Shown here one piece after another: positions 711 to 42,943 of a stretch of DNA of 43,297 bases. The notes beneath the pieces were generated by a model. It had not been told where the DNA came from and did not search any database. It worked only from the letters and a program-made list of their open reading frames with translations. The stretch lies in contig MIAO01000044.1 in the NCBI GenBank assembly GCA_001829155.1, positions 1 through 43,297 on the forward strand, given 5' to 3'. This stretch comes from Spirochaetes bacterium GWB1_36_13. GTDB taxonomy: Bacteria > Spirochaetota > GWB1-36-13. A program made the position numbers and the translations under genes. How positions within the stretch are numbered: the first letter of the stretch is position 1; every line of letters begins with the position of its first letter.

Positions 711-905
711 TTAAAAGATTTCATCGTTTTCAATTTTAAGGAGAAGAATAATCCGGTATTCAAAATTCAAAGAGACCGCCCAGCAATCTCTTAGAACTCC
801 TTTTAATTTATGGAGTTTGAGAGCAGGATCTTTGTAATTTTCAAGTAACCGCTTCAAGACTTTTTTATATTCTTCGAATAAAGACGGTCGTTTTTTAAAA
901 ATTTC
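711..905 (-). pseudogene. Start-less remnant of a RelE/ParE-like toxin (about 64 codons).
   Basis: Minus-strand translation gives KRPSLFEEYKKVLKRLLENYKDPALKLHKLKGVLRDCWAVSLNFEYRIILLLKIENDEIF. This fits the RelE/ParE pattern (..nP...kLkG.l.g.wElRi.gdyRiiY). There is no in-frame ATG, and an in-frame TAA lies at 906..908. It sits downstream and co-directional with the DUF2281-like gene at 1112..1330. Confidence 0.25.
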
Positions 906-927
906 TTAACTCGTTTTATACGCAACT

Positions 928-1090
928 GAATTTAAATTGCAATTTTTTTATAAATCCAATTTGTCATTGTCCGGCTTGACCGGACAATCTATTGAATTGA
1001 TTATCTTTTTCTATAGATTCCCCGGTCAAGCCGTGGAATGACTTGGCTTATACTTCAATTTTTGCAATTTAAAATCATTTCAGTATATAT
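928..1090. mobile_element. MITE-like element. Terminal inverted repeats AATTTAAATTGCAA / TTGCAATTTAAAAT enclose two internal palindromes (ATTGTCCGGcttgaCCGGACAAT and CCCCGGTCAAGCCGTGG).
   Basis: Terminal inverted repeats are read directly at 928..944 and 1063..1080. A second, diverged copy of the same element lies at 23484..23640. No ORF. Confidence 0.45.
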
Positions 1091-1111
1091 AGGTTTGAGT
1101 AAGTATCAGTT

Positions 1112-1330
1112 TTATTTTTCGGATAATAAAGAATTAAAATGCTCATCTAGATCATTTTTATCTCCGATGACAGAAACAAAACCTTGTTTTATTTCTTTTA
1201 GACTTTCTTTGAATCTGGATTGTCTTTTGTTTTTTAATACTAGAAAATCTGTGAAATCAATTATTTCCAAAATCGATTGTTCAGACAAGTTTTTGAGTTT
1301 GCGAATCAATTTTTTCTGGATTAAAGTCAT
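1112..1330 (-). CDS. Small DUF2281-like protein (putative antitoxin).
   Basis: 72 aa, MTLIQKKLIRKLKNLSEQSILEIIDFTDFLVLKNK. This resembles the DUF2281 N-terminus (L.EKLR.LP.E.QQEVLDFVEFL..K). The plus-strand ORF 1038..1349 overlapping it is judged spurious. Confidence 0.35.
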   Translation of the reverse strand: MTLIQKKLIRKLKNLSEQSILEIIDFTDFLVLKNKRQSRFKESLKEIKQGFVSVIGDKNDLDEHFNSLLSEK

Positions 1331-3304: not shown

Positions 3305-3450
3305 ACACTAGCCCCTCTCTTTCGAAGAGAGGGGGAAAAGAATGATTTTTTTATTTTTTCTATTTATTTGTGCTTTTTACTTTTTTCTTCCTCCCCTGAT
3401 CTTCCTAAGACTTGTGCTGAACAAAGTCGAAGCAGAAGGGGTCGGGGATG
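3305..3450. repeat. About 145-bp composite intergenic repeat: hairpin CCCCTCTCTT..AGAGAGGGG, then AAGAATGATTTTT, then a T-rich stretch, then CCTAAGACTTGTGCTGARCAAAGTCGAAGYAGAAGGGG..GGGGATGA.
   Basis: A near-identical second copy at 20078..20222 sits in the same position, directly upstream of a surface-lipoprotein gene. Confidence 0.6.
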
Positions 3451-6221: not shown

Positions 6222-6268
6222 AGTACACCCCCTCTCTTAGTAAGAGAGGGGGAAAAAAGAATGATTTT
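6222..6268. repeat. GC-rich hairpin element CCCCCTCTCTTAGTAAGAGAGGGGG followed by AAAAAAGAATGATTTTTTGG.
   Basis: Family member; see 1519..1562. Confidence 0.55.
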
Positions 6269-13664: not shown

Positions 13665-13916
13665 AATTTCTCCATCAATTATTATCTAAAGGCGAGTTCT
13701 AAAAATTAATTTTCCTGTCATTTCAAACAAAGTGAGAAATCTTAAAACATTGATATTAAAAAAAGATTTCTCTTCGCTTTGCTCATCGAAATGACGATTT
13801 TTTCTATTTTTAGAACTGCCCTAAACTTAACACTTTTATTTTCTACAAATCCAGCTCAGATTATATTATATAATAATCATTTTCAATAAAAAATCAAATC
13901 TATTTTTAAGAAATTC

Positions 13917-16597: not shown

Positions 16598-16640
16598 ACC
16601 CGCTTTTCCCCTTTCTTTCAAAGAGAGGGGAAAGCAAGAA
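16598..16640. repeat. Variant hairpin element TTTTCCCCTTTCTTTCAAAGAGAGGGGAAAG, about 100 nt upstream of the alaS start.
   Basis: Related to the 1519..1562 family but without the AGAATGATTTT tail. Confidence 0.4.
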
Positions 16641-20077: not shown

Positions 20078-20222
20078 TAACTCACCCCCCTGCCCCCCCT
20101 CTCTTAGAAAGAGAGGGGGGAAAGAAAGAATGATTTTACTTTTACTTTTTTTTCTTCTTCTTTATCTCCCCTTCTCTTCCTAAGACTTGTGCTGAGCAAA
20201 GTCGAAGTAGAAGGGGATGAGT
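20078..20222. repeat. Second copy of the ~145-bp composite intergenic repeat.
   Basis: Aligns with 3305..3450 over the hairpin, the AGAATGATTTT motif and CCTAAGACTTGTGCTGAGCAAAGTCGAAGTAGAAGGGGATGAG. Confidence 0.6.
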
Positions 20223-20991: not shown

Positions 20992-23463
20992 TTAATTCCA
21001 GAGTTTAACGACTCCGCTTTTCAGACTGGCATTGAAATAGGTAAAAAGACCGCCGGCAGTGATCTTTCCATCTGCACCGATACGGACGCAAAGCACATTA
21101 GCATCCGCACCTGTTCCCGGATCAAAGCTGGTGTCCAGAGTTCCGTCTGTATTGATCCGGGCAATCCGGTTTCGGGCAGTACCCTTATAGTTGGTAAAAA
21201 CTCCGCCGATCACGATCTTGCCGTCAGACTGGACTGCTGCTGAAACAATTGTATTATCCGCGCCAGAAGTAAAAGCAGTTTCAAGTGCACCTGTTGAGGC
21301 ATTGATGAAAGCAATTCTCTGAGAAGCTGTTCCTTTGTAAGAAGTAAAATCTCCTACGACCACAATATTTCCGTTGGATAAAAGACTGATATCGTAAACA
21401 ATATCATTGAATCCTGTTCCGATACCTGTTGTAAAGGCAGAGTCGGGGGCTCCTTCGGAAGAGAGTTTTGCAATGCGGTTGACACTCGTTCCGTTATAAC
21501 TGGTAAAGGTTCCGCCGATCAAGATACTTCCATCTGTAAGGACTTCGATATCATTGACATCAATGTTGGTTCCGCCGGTTCCTGATCCGCCGTTGTTGAA
21601 GGCAGTATCCAGTGTTCCGTCAGAGTAGAGTCTTGCAATACCAGGTTTTGAGGTTCCGTTGTAGGTAGTAAAAGCCCCTCCGATCAGAATTTTTCCGGAT
21701 GAAAGCTGATAAAGGGCTGTCACCGTATTATTGGCAGCCGTTCCTGAATTAAAGCTTGTGTCTCTCGTTCCATCTGCATTGAGCCGGGTAAGATAGTTGA
21801 CGGTGGTTCCGTTGTAAGTGGTGAAATACCCTCCCACGAGAATTTTTCCGTCTGACTGGATTAAAAGTTCATAAACCGCATTGTCAAAACCGGTTCCAAC
21901 TGTAAAACTGGTATCCAGCGTTCCGTCTGTATTGATCCGGGCAATCCGGTTGATCGCCGTTCCCCTGTAGTTTAGAAAACTTCCCCCGATAATCACTTTG
22001 CCGTCTGACTGGACAGCCACTGCAAAAACAGAATCATCGGCACCCGCAGCCGAATCAAAAGCAGAAACCATAATGCCATCGGTGGTTTTGGATGTTTGAG
22101 TATAAACACTCTCATTTCCAGAACCGTCTTTGACCAGAACAGTATAGTAATAAGTCGTGCCGGCGGTCAGTCCAGTCAAGGCTTTGGTTGTCATATTCGT
22201 CTCATAACCCGTGCAGGTTTTGGTCTTAGCAGTCGTTACATCGTTTGTAAAACCTGCAGTCGAATAACAGACTTGATATTGAAGCGTATTGGCAGCATAA
22301 ACAGTATCGCTTGCAGCCGTCCAGTTCACTGTCAATCCTGTCTGGGTCACAGAAGAAGAAGTGAGCGCCGGCGTTCCCACGGTTGGTACTATTGTATCAT
22401 TTGCAGTGGTTTGAGAGTTTTTCGTATAAATACTCTTATTGCCCGCTGCATCTTTCACGACAACTGTATAATAATAGGTTGTGTTATTAGAAAGCCCTGT
22501 AATTGCCTGGCTGGTAATCCCGGAAGCATAGCTTCCAACAGCCGTTCCGTTGGCTTCGGCATCGGCTACAGTGCTGATATTGTCGCTGGTAGAAATATAG
22601 ACTAGATATTCCAAATTTGAGCTTCCTGTGGCATCATCGGCGGCAGCCGTCCAGTTCACTGTCAATCCGGTTGCAGACACACTTCCTGCAGTCAATCCGG
22701 GAGTCCCTACTGTAGGAGCCGTGCTATCGGTTCCGGTTTTTTGATTTCCAGTAGTGTAAATTGCTTCATTATCCGCCGCATCTTTGACTGAAACAGTATA
22801 ATAATAAGTTGTATTGTCATTGAGTCCTGTAACCGCTAAACTGGTCTCTCCCGGCCGATATCCTCCGTGAGGCACCCCGTTGGTTTTGGCATCAGTGACG
22901 GTTGTAATATTATTAGTGGTTGAAGTATAGACTTGATATTGAAGCGAATCACCGCCTGTGGCATCATCGCTAGCAGGCGTCCAATTCACTGTAAAGCCTG
23001 TAGATGAAGGGCTTGAAGCAGTGACGGAAGGAGCGGCTACCACGGGAGCCGTTGAGTCTGTGCCGGTTTTCTGGCTGGATTTGGTATAAACTGTCTTGTT
23101 CCCTTTGGAGTCTTTTACTACCACAGTATAATAATAAGTCTGCCCATCGGTCAAGCCGGTGACAGCCTGGCTGGTAATCCCTGCCGTATAGCTTCCGGCT
23201 GGAGTCCCGTTGTTTTGCGCATCGGCAACCGTTGTAATAGTGTCGCTGGTGGAATAATACACCCGATATTGCAGGTTTGTATCTGTATCCGTTGCAGCCG
23301 TCCAATGGACTGTAAATCCGCTTGCCGATGGAGTGGAAGCGTAGATTTTTGAGACCGAAAGCGTTGGGGCAGTAGAGTCAACCGTCCCGATATATTCCAG
23401 ATTCTGCTTATTGATACAAGCGAGCACTAAGAAGGGTAAAAGAAATAAAAATAGATTCTTCAT
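20992..23463 (-). CDS. Giant surface lipoprotein: four N-terminal FN3-like repeats plus C-terminal delta-60 repeat (DUF5122-type) beta-propeller. True start is the ATG at 23463.
   Basis: Lipobox LVLAC after MKNLFLFLLPF. RBS AAGGAG lies 6 nt upstream of 23463. The ORF-track extension to 23544 runs into the MITE-like repeat. FN3-like repeats as in 16652..20056. The repeats SDGKILVGG.FT.YNGT.....ARLN.DGTLDTSF match delta-60. Confidence 0.8.
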   Translation of the reverse strand: MKNLFLFLLPFLVLACINKQNLEYIGTVDSTAPTLSVSKIYASTPSASGFTVHWTAATDTDTNLQYRVYYSTSDTITTVADAQNNGTPAGSYTAGITSQAVTGLTDGQTYYYTVVVKDSKGNKTVYTKSSQKTGTDSTAPVVAAPSVTASSPSSTGFTVNWTPASDDATGGDSLQYQVYTSTTNNITTVTDAKTNGVPHGGYRPGETSLAVTGLNDNTTYYYTVSVKDAADNEAIYTTGNQKTGTDSTAPTVGTPGLTAGSVSATGLTVNWTAAADDATGSSNLEYLVYISTSDNISTVADAEANGTAVGSYASGITSQAITGLSNNTTYYYTVVVKDAAGNKSIYTKNSQTTANDTIVPTVGTPALTSSSVTQTGLTVNWTAASDTVYAANTLQYQVCYSTAGFTNDVTTAKTKTCTGYETNMTTKALTGLTAGTTYYYTVLVKDGSGNESVYTQTSKTTDGIMVSAFDSAAGADDSVFAVAVQSDGKVIIGGSFLNYRGTAINRIARINTDGTLDTSFTVGTGFDNAVYELLIQSDGKILVGGYFTTYNGTTVNYLTRLNADGTRDTSFNSGTAANNTVTALYQLSSGKILIGGAFTTYNGTSKPGIARLYSDGTLDTAFNNGGSGTGGTNIDVNDIEVLTDGSILIGGTFTSYNGTSVNRIAKLSSEGAPDSAFTTGIGTGFNDIVYDISLLSNGNIVVVGDFTSYKGTASQRIAFINASTGALETAFTSGADNTIVSAAVQSDGKIVIGGVFTNYKGTARNRIARINTDGTLDTSFDPGTGADANVLCVRIGADGKITAGGLFTYFNASLKSGVVKLWN

Positions 23464-23483
23464 AAAAATCTCCTTTGTTGTGT

Positions 23484-23640
23484 TATATACTGAAATGATT
23501 TTAAATTGCAAAAATTTGACCGTTTTTTTTATTCTCTTTGTCATTCCCGCGAAGGCGGGAATCTATTGAAAATAAAATGATTAAATTACAAATTCCGGTC
23601 TTTTACAAGCAAAAACCGGAATGACAATTTTGCATTTTAT
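23484..23640. mobile_element. Second (diverged) copy of the MITE-like element: ATTTTAAATTGCAAAAAT ... TTGTCATTCCCGCGAAGGCGGGAATCTATTGAA ... ATTCCGGTCTTTTACAAGCAAAAACCGGAAT.
   Basis: 23484..23514 is the reverse complement of 1060..1090. Same internal hairpin-plus-CTATTGAA architecture as 928..1090. Confidence 0.45.
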
Positions 23641-23884
23641 ATTCAGCTCCGTATATAACCAGTGTTTCAAATCAGTATAAACACTGGTTTGAATTAAAAA
23701 TTAACCAAAATCGGGATTAACTTATTGTAGAATATAATCAAGTATCTGTCGTAATATTTTTACAAAATAAAAATGCCTATATATTTTACAATCAATTTTA
23801 TTTCAAAATTTAAAGAAAAAAATTAATTTTCAAATGGAAAATAATTATATTTAATTCAATAGTTTCCTTCACAAGGGGTCTTGA

Positions 23885-24526
23885 GTGATTAAGATCATGA
23901 TAGCAGACGATCATGAAATTGTTTTAATTGGATTAAAAAAACTTTTTGAAGATAAAGAAGATATAAAGATTATCGGAACAGCGGCAGACGGCAGACAGCT
24001 TTTAGAACAACTGAACCAAAATGCTCATGAAACCGATGTGGTTATTACAGATATCGGGATGCCGGATATAGACGGTCTTGACCTTATACCCAAGATCAAA
24101 AAAAACTGGCCGCAGCTCAAAATCCTTGTTTTATCCGCCTATACTGAAAGTGAATGGATTGAAAGAGTCTTTAAACTCGGAGCAGACGGCTTTATTCATA
24201 AAAACTCTTCTCACGAAGAAATCCCTCAAGCAATAAGAACTGTTTTACAAAATAAAAAATTTCTTTCCAGAAAAATTGAAAATGATTTATACCTCGAAAC
24301 AATTGAAAAAAAGACTCAAAAACATTCTCTCAGCCGGCTTTCTGAACAAGAATATAGAGTTTTAAAGCTGATTGTTCAGGGAAAATCAAATAAAGAGATT
24401 GCAGCCCATTTATCCCTTCAGGCATCCACTGTTTCGACTTATAAAAACCGTATTTTTGAAAAATTTCATGTCCAGAATCTTTCCGAGTTAATTGCCGTTA
24501 CTTTAAAAAATAAAATCATTCATTAG
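23885..24526 (+). CDS. Two-component response regulator, NarL/FixJ (LuxR-type HTH) family.
   Basis: REC domain (IADDHEIV..., VITDIGMPDIDGL, ILVLSAY) and C-terminal LuxR HTH (LSEQEYRVLKLIVQGKSNKEIAAHLSLQASTVSTYKNRIFEKF). GTG start at 23885 or ATG at 23897. Confidence 0.85.
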   Translation: MIKIMIADDHEIVLIGLKKLFEDKEDIKIIGTAADGRQLLEQLNQNAHETDVVITDIGMPDIDGLDLIPKIKKNWPQLKILVLSAYTESEWIERVFKLGADGFIHKNSSHEEIPQAIRTVLQNKKFLSRKIENDLYLETIEKKTQKHSLSRLSEQEYRVLKLIVQGKSNKEIAAHLSLQASTVSTYKNRIFEKFHVQNLSELIAVTLKNKIIH

Positions 24527-42844: not shown

Positions 42845-42943
42845 TTTTTATTTCTTCAACTCTGCACGACGCAGAGTTTCCTCGTCCGACTTGATTTCAG
42901 GGATGAAATCACGGAGGACTCCCCCTTGTCCTTAAAGACTTAA
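42845..42943. repeat. Inverted copy (copy B) of the ~100-bp element at 29976..30074. Its hairpin plus UUUCC could also act as a weak nadA terminator.
   Basis: The reverse complement of this region matches copy A. The hairpin CTCTGCACGACGCAGAG carries the compensatory variant. Confidence 0.6.

Follow-up and report, generated by a model that had tools for sequence, protein, structure and literature searches.

The window analysed here is a stretch of 43,297 nt (contig MIAO01000044.1, assembly GCA_001829155.1) from Spirochaetes bacterium GWB1_36_13, an uncultured groundwater spirochaete known from a Rifle metagenome-assembled genome (MAG). It contains two short non-coding elements, copy 1 at 917-1087 and copy 2 at 23486-23655, which are probably (at roughly 75%) members of different subfamilies of one non-autonomous family of miniature inverted-repeat transposable elements (MITEs). 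The family duplicates a TA dinucleotide at its target and carries dimers of repetitive extragenic palindromic (REP) sequences. Dispersed copies with sharp limits, conserved ends around swapped interiors, a TA duplication and an insertion into a toxin gene were all observed.

Limits and architecture of the window copies

Aligned in both orientations, the four ends of the two copies match out to TATAC...GTATA. With the terminal TA dinucleotides counted, copy 1 comprises 171 nt (917-1087) and copy 2 comprises 170 nt (23486-23655), and the inverted ends extend over about 27 nt with the pattern TATAC..TGA.T.TAAA.TGCAA. A first-pass annotation of the window had placed the copies at 928..1090 and 23484..23640 with ends of 14 nt. 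The shared terminal inverted repeats and internal architecture described there were recovered, whereas these limits proved too tight. The exact reverse complementarity reported between 23484..23514 and 1060..1090 was found to be slightly longer, since the repeat finder returned 33 nt at 100% for 1057-1089 against 23484-23516. For the two hairpin modules inside copy 1, the same program reported an inverted pair of 82%. The ends occur in two forms, A (TACTGAAATGATTTTAAATTGCAAAA, or TATACTGAAATGATTTTAAATTGCAAAA with the flanking TA) and B (TAC[AG][CA]AACTGAATATAAAATGCAAAA, or TATAC[AG][CA]AACTGAATATAAAATGCAAAA with the flanking TA). The parts of the two copies are as follows.

917..1087, minus strand: copy 1, subfamily II, 171 nt including the flanking TA at 917-918 and 1086-1087; A-type end on the right, B-type end on the left
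917..944, plus strand: B-type terminal inverted repeat of copy 1, TATACGCAACTGAATTTAAATTGCAATT
962..992, plus strand: TGTC-tagged REP hairpin of copy 1, 9-bp stem ATTGTCCGG/CCGGACAAT with loop CTTGA; its features fit the description of the CGTC family
1013..1043, minus strand: second REP hairpin of copy 1 in inverted orientation, GTCATTCCACGGCTTGACCGGGGAATCTAT
1060..1087, minus strand: A-type terminal inverted repeat of copy 1, TATACTGAAATGATTTTAAATTGCAAAA
23486..23655, plus strand: copy 2, subfamily I, between the start of a lipoprotein gene (23463, minus strand) and a response-regulator/histidine-kinase operon (from 23885)
23486..23513, plus strand: A-type terminal inverted repeat of copy 2
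23539..23566, plus strand: CGTC-1-type REP hairpin of copy 2, TGTCATTCCCGCGAAGGCGGGAATCTAT, 8-bp stem and 4-nt loop
23589..23626, minus strand: second hairpin of copy 2, GTCATTCCGGTTTTTGCTTGTAAAAGACCGGAAT; the GTCATT...AAT frame is kept and the stem is longer
23628..23655, minus strand: B-type terminal inverted repeat of copy 2, TATACGGAGCTGAATATAAAATGCAAAA

The window contains the motif GTCATT-N(8-34)-AATCTAT three times (963-992 and 23540-23566 on the plus strand, 1013-1042 on the minus strand), each time within copy 1 or copy 2. Shuffled sequences contained it 0.13 times on average and none of 100 shuffles reached three occurrences, so that the shared architecture is real and not a product of chance. 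The ends in their A and B forms, the assignment of the copies to different subfamilies and the placement of the hairpins in the described CGTC-tagged REP superfamily are all additions to the first-pass annotation.

Over their whole length the two copies are only 58% identical, and their flanks are unrelated. The closest relative of copy 1 (97%) lies in locus L027 and that of copy 2 (94%) at L037:12220, both on other contigs. A local segmental duplication within the window would account for the shared 33-nt end and for nothing more; given this low identity, the much closer relatives elsewhere, the unrelated flanks and dozens of further copies, it is excluded for all practical purposes.

Predicted folding differs between the copies. 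As single-stranded DNA, copy 1 forms one long hairpin of -37.9 kcal/mol (z = -10.9), while copy 2 folds locally into a pair of separate hairpins (z = -3.6 as DNA and -4.7 as RNA). No Rfam family reached its gathering threshold, and the sub-threshold matches were of palindrome type, the best being Wolbachia WsnRNA46 with 29.6 bits against a threshold of 65.3. The absence of coding capacity, as originally proposed, was borne out: the two open reading frames (ORFs) overlapping copy 1, of 34 and 103 aa, are spurious, and the longer one has no Pfam match.

The dispersed family and its target site

The family was collected by scanning metagenome contigs of the JGI for the end pattern, followed by extraction and pairing of the ends. 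The scan returned 87 loci, mostly from the samples Ga0209518 (the source) and Ga0154385, many of them with a plus-strand and a minus-strand end match about 130 nt apart. Pairing yielded 47 elements, 39 of them non-redundant and complete, on at least 30 contigs. All of these are bounded by TATAC...GTATA and lie between unrelated flanks. Their lengths range from 141 to 264 nt with a mode at 159-160 nt, and the GC content of all loci (31-41%) is host-like. Members were also present on two contigs of another metagenome, Ga0116156 (L042 and L072). In species-representative genomes, a collection without the host genome, the pattern ATACNNANNTGANTNTAAANTGCAA gave 21 single matches in unrelated taxa, which is about the number expected by chance. 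The first-pass annotation had proposed a MITE-like family and had named as evidence for a local duplication that only two copies exist, with no repeat or duplication signature elsewhere. The data contradict this, and with at least 39 complete copies the family is real.

The imperfect ends of 27-28 bp are conserved over the 39 copies, and most elements combine one A end with one B end. Between these common ends, two main subfamilies carry different interiors, and mixed forms are also present. Subfamily I, the type of copy 2 with 15 of the aligned copies, contains GTCATT-CCCGCGAAGGCGGG-AATCTATTGA together with an inverted GTCATT-CCGGTTTTTGCTTGCAAAAGACCGG-AATC, and subfamily II, the type of copy 1 with nine copies, contains GTCATT-CCCCGGCTTGACCGGGG-AATC together with an inverted GTCATT-GTCCGGCTTGACCGGAC-AATC. 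Beyond the complete elements, truncated and hybrid copies are numerous. They include an A end joined to a third, related end type (TATAGTAATTTGATGATAAAATGWCC), an A end joined to the unrelated end GGCGAGTTCTAAAAAT in three loci (L039, L084 and L098), one bare hairpin doublet without long ends (L082:11340-11420) and one 61-nt copy in L060 that consists of the ends only and looks like an internal deletion. Accordingly, ends and hairpin cores behave as reassorting modules. The shared REP cores would allow copies to recombine with each other, which may be the origin of the hybrid and truncated forms.

Two further observations concern the assembly of such repeats. Locus L116 (sample 3300025009, 421-1000) carries the antitoxin gene next to copy 1 together with an element whose right part and right flank differ, which is explained either by copies that recombined in the population or by an assembly that is chimeric at the repeat. 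The Logan contig L003 begins inside copy 2, which would fit an assembly break at a repeat.

In the flanks of the 39 copies, no direct repeat outside TATAC/GTATA is visible, and any duplication must thus be hidden in the palindromic terminus. A repeat of about 244 bp, here called X, provides an empty and a filled site for comparison, as two of its copies (in the window and in L027) are uninterrupted and one (in L079) is interrupted by a family member.

30076-30319: X repeat, about 244 bp, with ends TCAGGCTGTCGATTATTG and internal GAGCGGAGTCGAGG / GCTCAGTGAC hairpins; copies in L027, L079 and L096
30204..30205, plus strand: unoccupied TA target in X; the X paralogue of L079 holds a family member at exactly this TA

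The three sites read as follows.

Window X, empty: ...CCAAAAAAAGC TA TGAAAGATTGCAT... (short form ...AAAGC TA TGAAAGATTG)
L027 X, empty: ...AAAGC GA TGAAAGATTGCAT...
L079 X, filled: ...CCAAAATAAAGC TA[TAC...GTA]TA TTAAAGATTGAAT... (short form ...AAAGC TA[TAC...GTA]TA TTAAAGATTG)

A gap-free alignment of the X flanks requires that exactly 2 nt be retained, which means that TA was duplicated around an element TAC...GTA. The target-site duplication for which the first-pass annotation had suggested a search was thus found at this one pair. In L046, L092 and L096, fragments of X are joined to MITE ends that are truncated.

A TA duplication typically accompanies IS630/Tc1-mariner-type enzymes and Correia elements. 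By analogy, an enzyme of the IS630/Tc1-mariner type is suggested by the 2-bp duplication of TA and the inverted ends, which have about 27 bp. Such a transposase, supplied in trans, would bind the ends and cut and paste (or copy) the element into TA sites.

Insertion into a gene was observed at copy 1, which interrupts a yafQ/relE-like toxin gene.

711..916, minus strand: C-terminal part of the yafQ/relE-like toxin pseudogene, interrupted by copy 1 and carrying at least two further lesions
1088..1111, minus strand: N-terminal piece of the same toxin (KLILTQTY) on the far side of copy 1
1112-1330, minus strand: DUF2281-like antitoxin gene, intact

The C-terminal piece alone scored 25.7 bits against YafQ_toxin, and the two pieces joined scored 31.5-32 bits with a match from residue 2-3. 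This gain shows that copy 1 split the toxin gene. One of the further lesions is a frameshift in a T-run near 722-730; the other, near the junction, depends on the reconstruction and is either an in-frame TAA or a frameshift in an A-run near 893-899. L072 contains a homologous toxin-antitoxin pair that is intact, and a search for homologous proteins with the reconstructed toxin gave no candidates. In a gap-free comparison by hand of the N-terminal segment with the L072 toxin, retention of 2 nt looked better; this was not relied on.

Several points weigh against a TA-duplicating MITE family moved by a transposase in trans. The TA duplication rests on a single paralogous pair of empty and filled sites, as the palindromic terminus hides a duplication elsewhere, and the toxin reconstruction cannot separate 0 from 2 retained nt (32.0 against 31.5 bits, and likewise with BLOSUM). 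No autonomous element was found, as no matching pair of ends in the 87 metagenome loci encloses an ORF of transposase size, and among the transposase-like genes of the fetched DNA only those for PD-(D/E)XK proteins (PDDEXK_2, Transposase_31, Rpn-like) are present in multiple copies. An enzyme requiring a matched pair of ends cannot move the hybrids that join an A end to a quite different end type (A plus D); some copies are therefore recombinants. Furthermore, there is no direct evidence of current mobility, since every assembly of both window sites carries the element; for copy 2 these include the three contigs that encode a histidine-kinase protein of the window, namely the JGI contig Ga0209518_1000648, the NCBI MAG contig DPXE01000145.1 and one Logan contig.

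REP hairpins and candidate enzymes

In nearly all hairpin modules TGTC, GGTC or CGTC stands ahead of ATT. The stem ATTCCCGC-GAAG-GCGGGAAT comprises 8 bp with a 4-nt loop, and the stems ATTCCCCGG-CTTGA-CCGGGGAAT and ATTGTCCGG-CTTGA-CCGGACAAT comprise 9 bp with a 5-nt loop, while the hairpin type CCGGTTTTTGC...ACCGG has a longer stem and falls outside the 8-9-bp stem criterion. Both GTCATT tags point outward in all complete copies, which corresponds to head-to-head dimers. The hairpin types keep the GTCATT...AATC frame with differing stems, including two compensatory pairs between ATTGTCCGG/CCGGACAAT and ATTCCCCGG/CCGGGGAAT. Within the subfamilies no covariation was detected, the hairpins being conserved by descent, and compensatory changes are confined to comparisons between hairpin types.

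For CGTC-tagged REPs, Di Nocera, De Gregorio and Rocco (2013, PMC3733652) give an unpaired CGTC/TGTC (or CCTC) tag, stems of 8-9 bp opening with A-T pairs, loops of 4-5 nt, a predominance of head-to-head dimers and a 3-nt tail with the consensus CCA. According to the same paper, they are known in five phyla including Spirochaetes, and Neisseria CGTC-1 is the dRS3 repeat. Judged by tag, stems, loops and dimer arrangement, the internal hairpins of the family are assigned to head-to-head dimers of the CGTC-tagged REP superfamily.

A comparison of copy 2 with a plasmid collection by BLASTN gave matches confined to the hairpin. Positions 54-79 of copy 2 (window 23539-23564) were identical in 26 of 26 positions to two N. 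gonorrhoeae records, the gonococcal sequence reading CGTCATTCCCGCGAAAGCGGGAATCTAG, and Legionella, Sphingobium and Novosphingobium gave weaker matches. More than 120 IMG/VR contigs with a GC content of 41-72% contain the 24-mer GTCATTCCCGCGMARGCGGGAATC, usually with CAG or TAG after it. The hairpin tail of the present family is CTA, compared to mostly CAG or TAG in 120 other contigs. The REPIN master sequence of Neisseria, ATTCCCGCGCAGGCGGGAATC, differs in a single base from the hairpin described here and is found unchanged in L039. It has 241 occurrences in N. meningitidis, where it is treated as the REPIN of a Group 2 REP-associated tyrosine transposase (RAYT) by Bertels and Rainey, and it is also the RS3 primer sequence.

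Hairpins of this type also occur alone and in arrays. The window contains one solo hairpin, and the IMG/VR loci L135, L192, L194 and L132 carry one-strand arrays of 5-13 CGTC-1 hairpins at a spacing of about 70-175 nt (about 0.8-2.8 kb in L132), which resemble the mosaic intergenic regions of Neisseria.

34772..34798, minus strand: solo CGTC-1-type hairpin, TATTCCCGCAAAGGCGGGAATCTAT (minus-strand reading ATTCCCGCAAAGGCGGGAAT), in the interval that separates the flgB stop from the flgC ribosome-binding site

The hairpins raise the question whether the CGTC REP dimer itself is the mobile core, handled by an HUH/Y1 enzyme (RAYT or 'TIRYT') or by another enzyme, with the long ends as a palindromic target or a hitch-hiking shell. 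Such a core would fit the agreement with the CGTC superfamily, with its tags outside, as well as the module identical in 26 of 26 positions to Neisseria dRS3, the REPIN treatment of that repeat by Bertels and Rainey, and the constant GTCATT...AATC frame with its two compensatory pairs. It would also fit the association of the same hairpins with various end types, the one doublet that has no ends, the single long hairpin of copy 1, and the precedent of REP dimers in TATA-ended palindromes given by Di Nocera et al. Sequence conservation, however, does not stop at the hairpins and continues to the inverted ends, 45-60 nt outside them, and the hairpins of subfamily I differ from each other in sequence, so that they do not form a doublet of one REP. 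Y1 transposases (IS200/IS605) are not known to leave a 2-bp TA duplication. Neither Y1 nor RAYT genes were found in about 0.9 Mb of host loci (BLASTP with YafM and IS200 TnpA, HUH/Y motifs), nor was a Y1-type ORF found in 1.04 Mb around 120 other CGTC-1 hairpins; both are weak negatives. Likewise, CGTC REPs are described as lacking an associated transposase by Di Nocera et al. (PMC3733652). Altogether, mobility driven by the REP dimer is considered unlikely, and a TA-duplicating MITE that carries the dimer is the preferred interpretation.

For this interpretation the first-pass annotation had suggested looking for an insertion sequence (IS) with matching terminal inverted repeats, which was not found: no related IS with the same ends is present in the 87 metagenome, 2 viral and 21 genome loci found by the end pattern. 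Two individual candidates were rejected. A 3-kb pair of ends in L060, regarded as a longer element, consists of two separate small elements around ordinary genes, and an IS3 copy in L042, regarded as a partner, has unrelated ends.

The PD-(D/E)XK 'transposase' genes were located at the following positions.

55-576, 1727-2641 and 28632-29552, minus strand: PD-(D/E)XK genes in the window
L072:359-1258, L078:2897-3778 and L103:2049-2645: PD-(D/E)XK genes in other loci

A pair of the window genes has a 300-nt stretch in common at 93% identity. Three of about 12 distinct genes (in L103, L078 and L072) begin 12-32 nt from an element end, the one in L072 being bracketed by two direct MITE copies, and copy 1 lies within a cluster of such genes. 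Together with their status as the sole multi-copy transposase-like genes in the fetched DNA, this would be expected if PD-(D/E)XK proteins (PDDEXK_2/Transposase_31, Rpn-like) mobilised the elements or spread them by recombination. Most of these genes, however, are more than 300 nt away from any element, and about a third of the copies lie within 60 nt of some gene start anyway. The Rpn/YhgA family is not known to have an established recognition of inverted repeats or a TA duplication. Since the loci were selected for containing elements, the proximity is a lead and not a result, and a role of these proteins in moving the family is regarded as highly unlikely.

Gene context and comparison with known elements

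Copy 2 ends 22 nt from the ATG (23463) of the lipoprotein gene and lies upstream of the two-component operon starting at 23885, in agreement with its original description. The over-extension of the lipoprotein ORF attributed to it was also confirmed, as the ORF 20992..23544 enters copy 2 and the JGI gene call of 823 aa begins at ATG 23463. In general, 38 of the 39 copies are intergenic, and proximity to gene starts is about equal to proximity to gene ends. Between tandem, divergent and convergent genes the copies are distributed 18/11/3, compared to an intergenic background of 102/31/23, which is no clear difference.

Read outward, each end comprises TTGCAA or TTGCAT, a spacer of 16 nt and TATA plus two bases of the flank. 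At copy 2, TTGCAA-N16-TATA is placed just upstream of the AGGAG ribosome site and ATG 23463 of the lipoprotein gene, and a promoter contribution by the ends is possible from this sequence reading. These boxes and the stable hairpins are what could be expected if the copies were kept for a regulatory role, as promoters, operators, terminators or RNA stabilisers, and were not selfish mobile DNA. Such a function is nevertheless very improbable, as the flanks complete TATAAT at just 6 of 78 ends, a consensus promoter scan did not list the element-end sites, gene orientation shows no bias, one copy destroys a gene and no Rfam family reached its threshold. For mobile elements, gene disruption, possible outward transcription from TTGCAA-N16-TATA and RNA hairpins would be by-products and not the raison d'être of the element.

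Other repeats were noted in the window. A 99-nt inverted repeat containing GGACAAGGGGGAGTCCTCCGTGATTTCATCCCTGAAATCAAGTCGGACG (29976-30074 and 42845-42943) is 94% complementary over a distance of 12.8 kb. G/C-rich hairpins CCCCTCTCTTnnnAAGAGAGGGG then AAAGAATGATTTTTT occur at 1520-1552, 3312-3344, 6229-6261, 16608-16640 and 20096-20128, all intergenic, the last one about 40 nt upstream of the start of a minus-strand lipoprotein-like gene. A related palindromic element with different ends has a near-identical copy in L042, from the other metagenome.

13685..13829, no strand assigned: related palindromic element with the ends GGCGAGTTCTAAAAAT and two degenerate TGTC-tagged hairpins

MITEs span roughly 70-300 bp and are bounded by terminal inverted repeats of 15-30 bp. 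In size, lack of coding capacity, inverted ends, dispersed copies with unrelated flanks and target duplication the family corresponds to a MITE, the exception being the missing autonomous partner. Close parallels are found in the Correia/NEMIS elements of Neisseria, which are also non-coding, about 100-160 bp long and bounded by inverted ends of 26-27 bp beginning with TATA, with TA duplication. They also share alternative end forms giving subtypes, internal-deletion variants, a mostly intergenic position often beside gene starts and the lack of an identified transposase. Beyond TA, the A end is identical to the 27-nt Correia end TATAGTGGATTAAATTTAAATCAGGAC in 15 of 25 positions, a post hoc comparison in which 257 of 100,000 shuffles were as good. 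The specific 26-27-bp Correia repeat (TATAGTGGATTAA...) is not present, and homology of the ends is unproven since they are only about 60% alike. Furthermore, Correia elements contain an IHF site instead of a REP hairpin dimer and belong to a different phylum. Outward promoters and RNase III processing are further properties of Correia elements; on the side of the present family, the promoter-like TTGCAA-N16-TATA at the ends is a reading of the sequence. As far as the sequences can tell, the present family acts like Correia elements, yet it is not one of them.

Duplication of TA is linked to IS630, and RUP of S. pneumoniae and Nezha of cyanobacteria are IS630-derived. Both have TA duplication, short inverted ends, no coding capacity and many copies in common with the present family. 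Unlike it, each has a known parent IS with matching ends. They are named as bacterial MITEs in PMC3733652.

Compared to REPIN-RAYT systems (Bertels and Rainey), the inverted REP doublet able to form a long hairpin is a common feature, realised in copy 1 and subfamily II. Since conservation reaches the long ends, well beyond the doublet, and the hairpins of subfamily I (copy 2) are unlike each other, the family is not a clean REPIN; moreover, no RAYT was found in about 0.9 Mb of host loci. The tag, stems, loops and head-to-head dimers are shared with the CGTC-tagged REP superfamily, including Neisseria dRS3/NIME and Rickettsia RPE-4/RPE-6, and the mosaic mixing with other repeat modules recalls NIMEs. 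In contrast to CGTC REPs, the dimers lie inside long inverted ends with TA duplication, so that more than the REP spreads as a unit; the tail reads CTA and not CCA/CAG, and in one of the hairpin types the stem is much longer. PMC3733652 describes REP dimers inside long palindromes for Anabaena variabilis (GTAG-15, TATAGGA...TCCTATA, hence also with TATA termini) and Halothiobacillus neapolitanus (CGTC-1, 41 bp). End sequences and hosts differ from the present case, and the account of them given there reports neither target duplication nor subfamilies. As in these two cases, no inverted-end shell that never held a REP dimer was found among the family loci.

While the type of element, a MITE or a REP dimer inside a palindrome, is already known, the family itself is a previously undescribed and abundant one in an uncultured groundwater spirochaete. 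It accounts for the over-extended ORF call, the broken toxin gene and probably some contig breaks at repeats. In addition, it represents a clean example of CGTC REP dimers in a TA-duplicating inverted-repeat shell. For the question of how CGTC REPs spread, this is a lead only. A further reading of low probability is that they spread here as cargo of TA-duplicating inverted-repeat elements, or that the whole composite is moved by the abundant PD-(D/E)XK (Rpn-like) 'transposases' that adjoin several copies. If true, either would provide a concrete route of mobilisation for an orphan repeat superfamily that is found from Neisseria to Rickettsia.

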